Assembly: GCA_026396015.1 (NCBI GenBank)
Contig: JAPLXP010000003.1
Span: 176,974-240,973 of the forward strand
Reading direction: 5' to 3'
Length of the DNA: 64,000 nt
From: Candidatus Nomurabacteria bacterium
GTDB taxonomy: Bacteria > Patescibacteriota > Minisyncoccia > Phycocordibacterales > UBA9973
A program made the translations under genes and the position numbers. This document shows, piece after piece, positions 50,882-52,482 of this stretch; position 1 is the first letter of the stretch, and each line of letters starts with the position of its first letter. The notes under the pieces were generated by a model that was not told where the DNA came from, searched no databases, and was given only the letters and a program-made list of their open reading frames with translations.

Positions 50882-52482
50882 ATAGTAGAGTTTGATCCTA
50901 GCTCAGGATGAACGCTGGCGGCGTGGATAAGGCATGCAAGTCGAACGGACTTTATTTTTCCAGAGAATGAGATTACATCAAGTTCAAAGGTCGTTTAAAG
51001 TTAGTGGCGAACGAGGTAGTAATACACAGGAATCTCCCCCCGAGTCATGAACAACACATCGAAAGGTGTGCTAATACATGATAGTCCCTCCGGGGTAAAG
51101 TTTTTCGCTCGGGGAAGAGCCTGTGAAGTATCAGCTAGTTGGCGGTGTAATGGACCACCAAGGCTATGACGCTTAGGGGAGCTGAGAGGCTGACCCCCAC
51201 CGATGGGACTGAGACACGGCCCATACACCTACGGGTGGCTGCAGTCGAGAATCTTCCACAATGGACGAAAGTCTGATGGAGCGACGCCGCGTGATTGATG
51301 AAGCTTTTCGGAGTGTAAAGATCTTTTATGAGGGAAGAAGTTTATTGACGGTACCTCATGAATAAGGGGCTCCTAATCTCGTGCCAGCAGGAGCGGTAAT
51401 ACGAGAGCCCCGAGCGTTATCCGGAATTATTGGGCGTAAAGGGTGCGTAGGTGGCACTGTTAGTCGATTGTTAAAACTTGGGGCTTAACCCCAAAGATGC
51501 GATCGAAACGGCAGAGCTAGAGAGTGTGAGGGGTGAATGGAACTCATGGTGTAGGGGTGAAATCCGTTGATATCATGGGGAACACCAAAAGCGAAGGCAA
51601 TTCACTGGCACATATCTGACACTCAAGCACGAAAGCGTGGGTAGCGAATGGGATTAGATACCCCAGTAGTCCACGCCCTAAACGATGTTCATTAGTCTTT
51701 CGGAGTATCGACCCTCTGAGAGACGTAGCTAACGCGTTAAATGAACCGCCTGGGAAGTACGGCCGCAAGGCTAAAACTCAAAGGAATAGACGGGGACTTG
51801 CACAAGCGGTGGATTATGTGGTTTAATTCGATGATAAACGAAGAACCTTACCAAGGTTAGAAATCAACGTGAAAGCCCCGAGAAACCGGGGCCCTCGCAA
51901 GACTAGTTGACAGGTGATGCATGGCCGTCGTCAGTTCGTGGTTTGAATTGTTCCCTTAAGTGGGGTAACGAACGCAACCCTCGTCGTGTGTTACAAGTGT
52001 CACACGAGACTGCCCCGACCCAAGCGCATGAGAATTAGTGACTAGTAATTAGTTGCTAGGTTCTAGTATTCCACTAGAACCTAGTCCCTAGCTACTAGAA
52101 CCTAATGTTCGTGAGTTTCGGTCGGGGAGGAAGGGGAGGATGACGCCAGGTCAGCATGTCCCTTGATACCTTGGGCTACACACATAATACAATCGCCACT
52201 ACAACGGGCAGCGACGGAGTAATCCTGAGCGAATCCTAATAAAAGTGGCGTCAGTTCGGATTGGGGGCTGCAACTCGACCCCATGAAGCTGGAATCGCTA
52301 GTAATCGCGGGTCAGATATACCGCGGTGAATACGTTCTCAAGTCTTGTACTCACCGCCCGTCAATTCAAGGGAGCCGGGAATACCCGAAATCTCTCCAAA
52401 AGGAGGGCCTACGGTAAGCTCGGTGACAGGGAATAAGTCGTAACAAGGCACGGCTAGCGGAAGCTGGTCGTGGAATAATTCA
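50882..52482 (+). rRNA. 16S ribosomal RNA (complete, unlinked from 23S)
   Basis: Begins AGAGTTTGATCCTAGCTCAG. Universal blocks present: GTGCCAGCAGGAGCGGTAATAC, GGATTAGATACCC, AAACTCAAAGGAATAGACGG, GCAACGAGCGCAACCC-like, TGTACTCACCGCCCGTCA, AAGTCGTAACAAGG. ~1.6 kb including a ~95-nt insert. Flanks 50843-50865 and 52615-52640 are mutually complementary (processing stem). Confidence 0.9.
52040..52105 (+). repeat. CTAG-rich hairpin repeat, copy D, as an expansion segment in 16S helix h40
   Basis: Inserted between the closing stem ccccgacc / ggtcgggg. Contains perfect hairpin ctaggttctag-tattcca-ctagaacctag plus tccctagctactagaacctaa. Confidence 0.6.

Follow-up and report, generated by a model that had tools for sequence, protein, structure and literature searches.

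The DNA analysed here is a 64-kb stretch (64,000 nt, hereafter the window) of a metagenome-assembled genome (MAG) of a Candidatus Nomurabacteria bacterium, a member of the Patescibacteria or candidate phyla radiation (CPR), and our subject is a short palindrome built from 7-nt units (heptads). One copy of this element forms the tip of helix 40 (h40) in the 16S ribosomal RNA (rRNA) gene, and three others lie in the spacers just upstream of ssb, rpsR and topA. The genes examined in the window are ordinary housekeeping genes as judged by Pfam, and the loci that carry the element are made up as follows.

10966–11439, plus strand: rpsF, ribosomal protein S6 (Pfam PF01250)
11444–11522, plus strand: element copy of 79 nt filling the rpsF–ssb spacer, ending 4 nt before the ssb ATG
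11527–11979, plus strand: ssb (Pfam PF00436)
11990–12064, plus strand: element copy of 75 nt filling the ssb–rpsR spacer, ending 3 nt before the rpsR ATG
12068–12268, plus strand: rpsR, ribosomal protein S18 (Pfam PF01084)
29689–31911, minus strand: topA (Pfam Toprim, Topoisom_bac and Zn_ribbon_Top1)
31926–31988, no strand assigned: element copy of 63 nt between dprA and topA (both on the minus strand), just 5′ of the topA start
32040–32954, minus strand: dprA (Pfam PF02481); the annotated product, 287 aa, starts at 32903
50880–52485, plus strand: 16S rRNA gene (Rfam RF00177, SSU_rRNA_bacteria, 1340 bits, full model 1–1533)
52013–52127, plus strand: complete expanded h40, in which the closing stem CCCCGACC/GGTCGGGG is followed by a basal extension and, at the tip, by the repeat
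52034–52106, plus strand: heptad-palindrome element in h40, 73 nt, ATTAG...CTAAT, defined by sequence, pattern match and family alignment

The expanded helix h40

In the covariance-model alignment of the 16S gene, 104 nt fall between model positions 1157 and 1158 in place of a 4-nt loop. We take this site to be the h40 hairpin from established 16S numbering and from the E. coli sequence ...ACUGCCAGUGAUAAACUGGAGGAAGG.... The initial annotation had thus placed the insertion correctly, although its size of about 95 nt was too low, the extra sequence amounting to about 100 nt; its limits for the repeat (52040–52105) covered the core and are extended here to 52034–52106. The closing stem pairs CCCCGACC (52013–52020) with GGTCGGGG (52120–52127), and the 115 nt from 52013 to 52127 were predicted to form one continuous hairpin of −60.8 kcal/mol, with a folding z of −4.8 against dinucleotide shuffles for 52020–52131. 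The apical stem CTAGGTTCTAG/CTAGAACCTAG, first described as a perfect 11-bp hairpin, is present and reaches 13 bp once flanking pairs are counted. Within the element, the left arm consists of TAG-type heptads (ATTAG TGACTAG TAATTAG TTGCTAG GTTCTAG), the centre is TATTCCA with the loop ATTCC, and the right arm reads CTAGAAC CTAGTCC CTAGCTA CTAGAAC CTAAT.

The 104-nt insert contains no open reading frame (ORF), hence no LAGLIDADG or GIY-YIG reading frame, and no intron catalytic core was detected, the Rfam gathering scan of the whole window returning only SSU rRNA and tRNAs. A group I or II intron with a homing endonuclease, already excluded by the initial annotation, was ruled out on these grounds. 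Searches at gathering and E-value thresholds assigned none of the elements to an Rfam family, the sole match being a chance sub-threshold miRNA hairpin. What is inserted is an additional stem-loop that lengthens the tip of a conserved rRNA helix, as in rRNA intervening sequences (IVSs) and expansion segments. The same gene carries a second expansion in helix h6 (50955–50995; 41 nt against 4 in the model), which is without heptad structure.

One repeat family and its empty sites

The 24-nt pattern CTAGAACCTAGNNNCTAGNNNCTA matched exactly the four element loci in the window, with 0 matches expected, in agreement with the earlier observation that the h40 repeat recurs in the ssb leader, the rpsR leader and the topA–dprA spacer. 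Allowing one mismatch or fewer, CTAGAACCTAG occurred 12 times in the 64 kb, against 0.75 expected, and was confined to the same number of clusters, four, while CTAG itself was not over-represented (236 observed versus about 190–220 expected). A fifth CTAG cluster at 37703–37727 was rejected, as it lies inside a tRNA-Gln gene and is unrelated to the family. The 18-mer CTAGAACCTAGTCCCTAG is identical between the rpsR leader (12032–12049) and the 16S gene (52074–52091); it had also been attributed to the ssb leader, which instead reads CTAGAACCTAGAACCTAG. The ssb leader and h40 have the block ATTAGT(A/G)ACTAGT in common.

Every copy is an imperfect palindrome built of 7-nt units as (CTAGGTT)n-loop-(CTAGAAC)n and bounded by ATTAG...CTAAT; the arms are short (3–5 heptads), and the whole is a discrete palindrome with defined ends. 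Tandem Repeats Finder (TRF) reported a period of 7 or 14 at 11490–11513, 11992–12016, 12031–12062 and 31951–31969. Each copy was predicted to fold as a hairpin, as the initial annotation had stated, and these hairpins are stable and about 20–45 bp long. When the window copies were aligned with the ssb-leader copy of another Nomurabacteria genome (L064), mean column identity was 67% with shared termini, and the consensus was ATTAGTnnnTAGTTnCTAGGTTCTAGT-loop-ACTAGAACCTAGAACCTAGAAACTAGnACCTAAT. In the hairpin register common to the aligned copies 87.5% of cells were paired, versus 19–43% with the partner columns slid; covariation among these copies did not exceed the shuffle control. The four copies belong to one family.

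On the sense strand of the ssb leader, the rpsR leader and h40, UAG recurs every 7 nt. In the topA leader the orientation of the element is reversed, so that the topA mRNA reads mostly the complementary units. Sense and antisense strands of the window elements folded equally well (−31.2 versus −31.7 kcal/mol for the h40 core). We found neither promoter nor terminator consensus sites on the sense strand within the elements, and no terminator–antiterminator alternative at them.

We then found that the intergenic sites are empty in close relatives. The rpsF–ssb and ssb–rpsR spacers measure 18–31 nt and contain no heptads (ggtATTAGtagataaCTAAactcacatATG and ttaacaagTTAGaatcaattATG are examples) in L242–L244, whose SSB is 93–94% identical, and in L245 and L246 (83–85%). 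The topA leader is empty in L393 (DprA 94% identical), where it reads ...tttgcaaaaaaatattctttcgtgtaataCTAGacgaatatATG, 8 nt after a conserved ...gtaataCTAG; at the window site the same conserved flank is followed by the element and then by the ATG. Each of the three intergenic copies starts directly 3′ of a (C/T)TAG (YTAG) that is already present in the empty site. No TAG/CTA heptad arrays were found in the syntenic DNA of L245 (20 kb) and L393 (21 kb), nor any short intermediate arrays in syntenic DNA of the ~94% relatives. The right-hand flanks of the intergenic copies have diverged from the empty sites, and because the DNA adjoining the copies has diverged too, neither a clean insertion boundary nor a clear target-site duplication is definable. 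The more distant L064 has a CTAG array between rpsF and ssb and an ssb–rpsR spacer of only 3 nt, and L065 has no array before topA. In a strain that is 99.5% identical (L001), both leader arrays are unchanged, with no variation in unit number in this one comparison, and the leader copies are therefore present in an independent assembly.

The h40 tip varies in the same manner. The nearest 16S relatives among the matches listed were L168 (94.7%), L212 (94.5%) and L201 (96% over the 3′ part); the closing stem is the same in L168 and L201 and closely similar in L212 (ccccaacc/ggttgggg), and the tips are unrelated to that of the window, being formed by AAAGTTn arms in L168 and by a short plain hairpin in each of L212 and L201. 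Since the whole element is missing at three sites in ~94% relatives and the h40 tips are unrelated, the copies are recent gains, which weighs against a conserved mimicry of the kind used by ribosomal proteins. Furthermore, close relatives express the same genes with repeat-free spacers of 8–31 nt, indicating that the hairpins are dispensable.

Heptad arrays in related 16S genes and across Patescibacteria

Related 16S loci were collected by searching metagenomes for a lineage-specific 21-mer that lies immediately 3′ of h40, and at least 120 loci matched; the h40 region was measurable in 113, and the counts for these loci hold among the matches listed. Twenty-five had a minimal tetraloop, 42 a plain extension of ~30–50 nt and 46 a long expansion reaching about 210 extra nt. 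Across these genes the h40 tip is hypervariable, and often it is absent. A significant 7-nt period was detected in 20 of the 46 long expansions and any other period in 3. At least three TAG and three CTA in 7-nt register were found in six expansions including that of the window, against 0.13% of shuffles. Heptad arrays within 16S genes fell in h40 in 30 of 40 cases, with a few in other helices, so that h40 is the preferred rRNA site of heptad palindromes among these matches. The h40 expansions folded better as sense RNA in 75 of 86 cases (mean difference −6.1 kcal/mol) and held 308 G·U pairs in the sense strand versus 117 in the antisense strand; after trimming 28 nt from each end, the bias persisted (29 versus 9, p = 0.004). 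Resident h40 expansions are therefore constrained to stay helical as RNA, a property that is needed both by a retained expansion segment and by an IVS excised by RNase III.

Two further genomes have the same unit in h40 and in several intergenic arrays, ACTACCA/TGGTAGT in L189 and TACAATC/GATTGTA in L216. These were the clear cases of k-mer sharing between h40 and its flanks in 20 other genomes for which 5 kb or more of flank was available; no copies of the h40 unit were found in the 5–12-kb flanks of the 18 further genomes, where short flanks give little power. One class of unexplained short ORF-less rRNA inserts of CPR is here identified as copies of genome-specific heptad palindromes that also occur in operon spacers. 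Apparent sharing in L174 and L149 was rejected as chance matching, and that in L237 proved to be a second copy of the h40 region itself rather than an intergenic array: at ~3010–3140, ~2.5 kb from the 16S h40, a near-identical expansion including the closing stem is followed by non-16S sequence, and it may represent a fragment of 16S, a duplication or a rearrangement involving an intron.

Heptad hairpins may also expand other structural RNAs. One lies in the apparent RNase P RNA of L136 and L142, where an ATTATGT-heptad hairpin (L136 ~3150–3290, L142 ~1490–1630) stands directly before ...GGAGGAAAGUCCGAACA, a sequence that we interpret as the conserved beginning of RNase P RNA. A similar case at 3845–3925 of L140 is probably in 23S rRNA. 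In addition, the distance from the 21-mer to GTCGTAACAAGG is ~1100–1300 nt, against ~277 nt, in L122, L135, L140, L149, L150, L155, L164 and others; the spacing indicates a large insertion near position 1400 of 16S, the known CPR intron site.

The same 16S genes lack an anti-Shine–Dalgarno (anti-SD) sequence in all 103 cases with a readable 3′ end (L122–L241), where they have a shared 3′ tail, GGAWUAAUUCAAUUUGA. The 16S 3′ end in the window (52440–52500) is GGAAUAAUUCAAUUUGAAA, and the CCUCC anti-SD is missing. No GGAGG-type Shine–Dalgarno (SD) motif precedes start codons upstream of about 50 window ORFs. Some Parcubacteria are already known from published work to have lost the anti-SD (PMC9297842). 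Many window genes have TATAAT 6–12 nt before the ATG, which suggests that window mRNAs may be leaderless or have very short leaders, and most operon-internal genes in the window sit 0–5 nt past the preceding stop.

A scan of a genome collection with the pattern CTAGAACCTAGNNNCTAGNNNCTA returned at least 120 loci. At least 31 of these are from Patescibacteria, in many classes, a group that contributes an estimated few per cent of the bases scanned. Among the matches listed, to which the following gene counts also refer, the typical patescibacterial array is (CTAGnnn)n-CTAATTT-N1-3-ATG, and an ORF of at least 60 codons starts 3–12 nt past the last CTA unit in 19 of 43 CPR arrays. Seven of the 19 precede ribosomal-protein genes identified by Pfam (S14 twice, S19, S7, S20, L20 and S18). 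The other genes encode SSB (twice), SecY, Obg, NusB, ClpP, thioredoxin reductase, a methyltransferase, a Bro-N protein and three products without a Pfam match. If ribosomal-protein genes make up ~6% of a CPR genome, as we assume, this is a ~six-fold excess (binomial ~1e-4), and the suggested enrichment at leaders of ribosomal and translation genes holds across Patescibacteria. High transcription, or a selected benefit at highly expressed genes, accounts for the bias as well as a shared binding site does. The 17 CPR leader arrays that were folded had no sense/antisense asymmetry (8 versus 9).

Period 7 is prominent well beyond this family. In ~1 Mb of CPR DNA, TRF at a score of at least 36 reported 116 repeats of period 7 and 65 of period 14, versus 7 of period 6 and 11 of period 8, and arrays flanking the related 16S loci were intergenic in 42 cases versus 14 coding (among the matches listed). 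Beyond CPR, intergenic (CTAGAAC)n microsatellites are found in Shewanella, Vibrio, Pseudoalteromonas, Streptomyces and others, and such repeats also turn up in viral contigs. Pure runs of up to ~25 units were seen in intergenic DNA of Shewanella, Pseudoalteromonas, Vibrio, Ferrimonas, Cellvibrionaceae and Desulfuromonadales (L003, L022, L025, L031, L037, L049, L073 and others). Viral contigs held 9 CTAG heptad loci, 8 GATC heptad loci and 2 CTAG period-8 loci, and the period-6 control in them was dominated by coding repeats. A CTAG-specific factor acting in all bacteria was rejected, because GATC heptads are as frequent as CTAG heptads there. A composite structure was seen in certain genomes and in one viral contig of 66% GC: a GC-rich hairpin resembling a terminator sits between the two CTAG-heptad arms, which form the base of the longer stem (L065 ~5330–5400, L115 ~5860–5950, L261).

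Origin of the family, known counterparts and surroundings

On balance we lean towards the view that the element is a small palindrome, either resembling repetitive extragenic palindromic (REP) doublets (REPINs) and miniature inverted-repeat transposable elements (MITEs) or derived from a simple sequence repeat (SSR), which multiplied recently and of which one copy became an IVS-like extension of h40. With 63–79-nt imperfect palindromes at four or more sites in this bacterium, the family looks like a spreading repeat and not like a shared regulatory site. Of the two readings offered by the initial annotation, the mobile CTAG palindrome is favoured because the four copies align as a family, three sites are empty and the nearest 16S relatives have unrelated h40 tips, whereas a binding site common to rRNA and leaders is disfavoured, neither the rRNA segment nor the leaders being conserved in close relatives. 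The recurrence of the same ~70-nt architecture, termini and identical blocks at four unrelated loci supports spread at the DNA level, and equal folding on both strands, in the window copies and in the 17 CPR leaders, fits young DNA palindromes rather than structures selected as RNA.

If the element is such a mobile repeat, the family would have multiplied recently in this Candidatus Nomurabacteria lineage, and copies would persist where an added hairpin does little harm. Tolerated sites would be the very short spacers 5′ of start codons in highly expressed operons (ssb, rpsR, topA) and the h40 tip, which in this clade is already extended by 30–50 nt and is a hot spot for such hairpins. Spread may have proceeded by copy-and-paste of a hairpin-forming single strand, as in REP/REPIN or IS200-type elements, or alternatively by gene conversion between copies, with 7-nt slippage altering the number of units. 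Judging from the start of the copies just 3′ of a pre-existing YTAG, this tetranucleotide could be the target or seed of the element, by analogy with the single-strand transposition of IS200/IS605 and REP elements. Once transcribed, the element would lengthen h40 coaxially into the solvent, and as an IVS or expansion segment it could either be carried in the mature 16S rRNA or be trimmed by a double-strand-specific RNase such as RNase III. The Pfam scan of ORFs found no RNase III gene in the 64-kb window.

Several observations weigh against recent spread of a mobile repeat. Pfam scanning of ~48 of the ~50 long ORFs in the window brought up no transposase, REP-associated tyrosine transposase (RAYT) or IS200-like gene, and no clear target-site duplication or clean boundary is definable at the copies. 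CTAG-heptad arrays recur in many Patescibacteria classes 3–12 nt before start codons, 7 of 19 at ribosomal-protein genes, and such tight placement together with this bias is not predicted by a purely selfish element. In the clade as a whole, 75 of 86 h40 expansions are more stable as sense RNA, pointing to an RNA-level constraint once they are resident. This h40 is also without an independent assembly, because public short-read (Logan) contigs of the same strain stop at the borders of the 16S gene, and exact-sequence look-ups of dprA and of the last window ORF gave no match.

That last point, and the origin of the window from a MAG, would be expected if a metagenome assembler had joined repeat-containing reads into the 16S gene. 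We regard such an artefact as having next to negligible probability because the insert sits precisely within the h40 loop, between two flanks that are complementary to each other, and because ~88 of the 113 independently assembled relatives also have h40 expansions, with comparable hairpins where inspected; the leader copies, moreover, were confirmed in L001. Growth in place without mobility is an unlikely account of the whole. By this route each array would have arisen from a local YTAG/CTAA seed by 7-nt replication slippage, and template-switch 'quasipalindrome correction' would have made the arms complementary, preferentially in heavily transcribed non-coding DNA that tolerates them, such as operon spacers and rRNA helix tips. 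An (A)TTAG or CTAG is indeed present in every empty site exactly at the array start, periods 7 and 14 dominate CPR DNA over periods 6 and 8, and (CTAGAAC)n occurs in unrelated phyla and viruses, where GATC heptads are as common. Among long SSRs of bacteria, heptamers are the favoured class. An excess of heptamer SSRs and inverted heptamer pairs is also known in other bacteria (PMC4692102). Four loci would nevertheless have to converge on the same ~70-nt architecture, the same termini and long identical blocks (the 18-mer and ATTAGT(A/G)ACTAGT), and the syntenic DNA of 94% relatives holds no intermediate short arrays. Slippage with palindrome correction is accordingly plausible for the heptad substructure and poor for the near-identical architecture at four loci.

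Readings in which the repeat acts as RNA must meet the absence of the element from close relatives. A selected signal is about as unlikely as growth in place, the hairpins serving as RNase III-type processing sites or as 5′/3′ stabilisers that uncouple cistrons in an organism without SD motifs, and the h40 copy being an IVS excised by the same enzyme, with fragmentation of the 16S rRNA. This agrees with the stable hairpins of about 20–45 bp, with arrays 3–12 nt before starts in 19 of 43 CPR cases and their enrichment at ribosomal-protein and housekeeping genes, with the lack of an anti-SD in 103 of 103 related genes and of SD motifs in the window, and with the sense-strand stability bias of h40 expansions in the clade. 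A gene for RNase J, an enzyme that 5′ hairpins block, lies nearby (14214–16256), and short non-intron inserts in CPR 23S rRNA have been proposed to be RNase III IVSs (PMC11270868). On the other side, relatives express the same genes behind repeat-free spacers of 8–31 nt, the leader copies have neither sense-strand bias nor covariation, and the elements contain no terminator or promoter consensus. Improbable, and speculative, is the idea that CUA/UAG heptad arrays are a cis-acting signal in SD-less Patescibacteria, read in 7-nt register by a conserved protein or the ribosome and marking the starts of ribosomal-protein and core genes, with the factor titrated by expanded rRNA helices (h40, and in some genomes RNase P P3); if true, this would be a new repeat-based coupling of ribosome production to translation or mRNA processing. 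Very improbable is a binding site that rRNA and leaders share by mimicry, recognised by a ribosomal protein (S6:S18) or by a ring-shaped factor that reads UAG once per 7 nt in the manner of HutP, a protein that recognises regularly spaced NAG triplets; through such binding, ribosome assembly and the expression of ssb, rpsR and topA would be coupled. The sense-strand UAG found every 7 nt in h40 and in the leaders of ssb and rpsR, and the CPR-wide enrichment of CTAG arrays before ribosomal-protein genes, are compatible with it. Mimicry is disfavoured because the h40 tip and the leaders are both unconserved in relatives at about 94–95% identity, because the element is reversed in the topA leader, whose mRNA carries mostly complementary units, and because S6:S18 binds the central domain of 16S rRNA and h40 is, to our knowledge, no known S6/S18 site. 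In addition, the heptad units differ in sequence between genomes and no terminator–antiterminator alternative is present. In the favoured reading the element is neither a conserved operator nor a ribosomal-protein mimic.

Among known systems, rRNA IVSs are found in helices 25 and 45 of the 23S rRNA of Salmonella, Coxiella and Campylobacter and are rarer in 16S rRNA. Like them, the h40 insert has no ORF or intron fold and is sporadic among close relatives (94–96% 16S identity); unlike them, it is a copy of a dispersed intergenic repeat with a 7-nt period. The family resembles REP/REPIN sequences and small MITEs in being composed of several dispersed short imperfect palindromes between co-directional genes, in its presence or absence at orthologous sites (rpsF/ssb, ssb/rpsR, dprA/topA), in having hairpins co-transcribed with mRNAs and in having a conserved tetranucleotide beside the hairpin (GTAG in REP, YTAG here), and it is also reminiscent of the Correia elements of Neisseria. 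It differs from them in that no RAYT or transposase was found in 64 kb, the arms are tandem heptads, one copy lies within an rRNA gene and the copies are few, four in 64 kb. In ribosomal-protein autoregulatory leaders (S8/spc, S15, L1, S4), a sequence is likewise common to rRNA and to leaders of ribosome-associated genes, but the h40 segment is not a conserved binding site, neither partner is conserved and topA has a copy too.

Heptameric SSRs are described as short tandemly repeated repetitive (STRR) sequences of cyanobacteria and as GGGAATC arrays in Xanthomonas and GGGGAYT arrays in Nostoc, within a general excess of heptamer repeats in bacteria, sometimes as inverted pairs, with function unknown (PMC4692102). 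The present elements resemble these in their tandem 7-nt units, strongly intergenic position, lineage-specific unit and inverted pairs able to form hairpins, and differ in that the window arrays are short (3–5 units per arm), form a discrete palindrome with defined ends, abut start codons and also sit in a structural RNA gene. CPR rRNA genes are rich in insertions, and the surveys covered inserts of at least 100 bp, assigning most to group I/II introns with homing endonucleases (PMC11270868; PMC9297842). Short ORF-less non-intron inserts were left 'uncharacterized' (Tsurumaki et al. 2024, PMC11270868), some being suggested to be RNase III IVSs; ours is similar, a stem-loop of ~100 nt at the tip of a conserved helix, and differs in its site, 16S h40, which is outside the sites discussed in the text consulted. 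The literature searched contained no description of the h40 hot spot, its 7-nt periodicity or a link to intergenic repeats.

The family is a concrete test case for the spread of tiny repeats where genomes are very small, and for the fate of such expansions in bacterial ribosomes, which may carry them or trim them. With these inserts, 16S genes become longer and more diverse, which has consequences for primer design, alignment and chimera filters, and short-read assemblies break on them at rRNA and ribosomal-protein loci. The placement of arrays before start codons in a clade without an anti-SD offers a lead on translation initiation in Patescibacteria.

Around these loci, the genome of L001 has an extra ~715 nt (1480–2196) just past the rpsR terminator, compared with window position 12313, containing a 216-aa ORF without a Pfam match. 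No tRNA or 23S gene follows the 16S gene, the rRNA genes being unlinked over at least 11.5 kb (52486–64000), and the next gene (52832–54481) encodes a BNR/PG-binding repeat protein with internal 126-nt repeats at 52961–53566. Upstream of the 16S gene, a 74-nt unit is repeated 2.9 times with 98% identity at 49815–50025, between tRNA-Lys (minus strand) and the 115-aa ORF preceding the 16S gene; public short-read contigs also break at this repeat, which may represent tandem rRNA promoters or some other kind of repeat.

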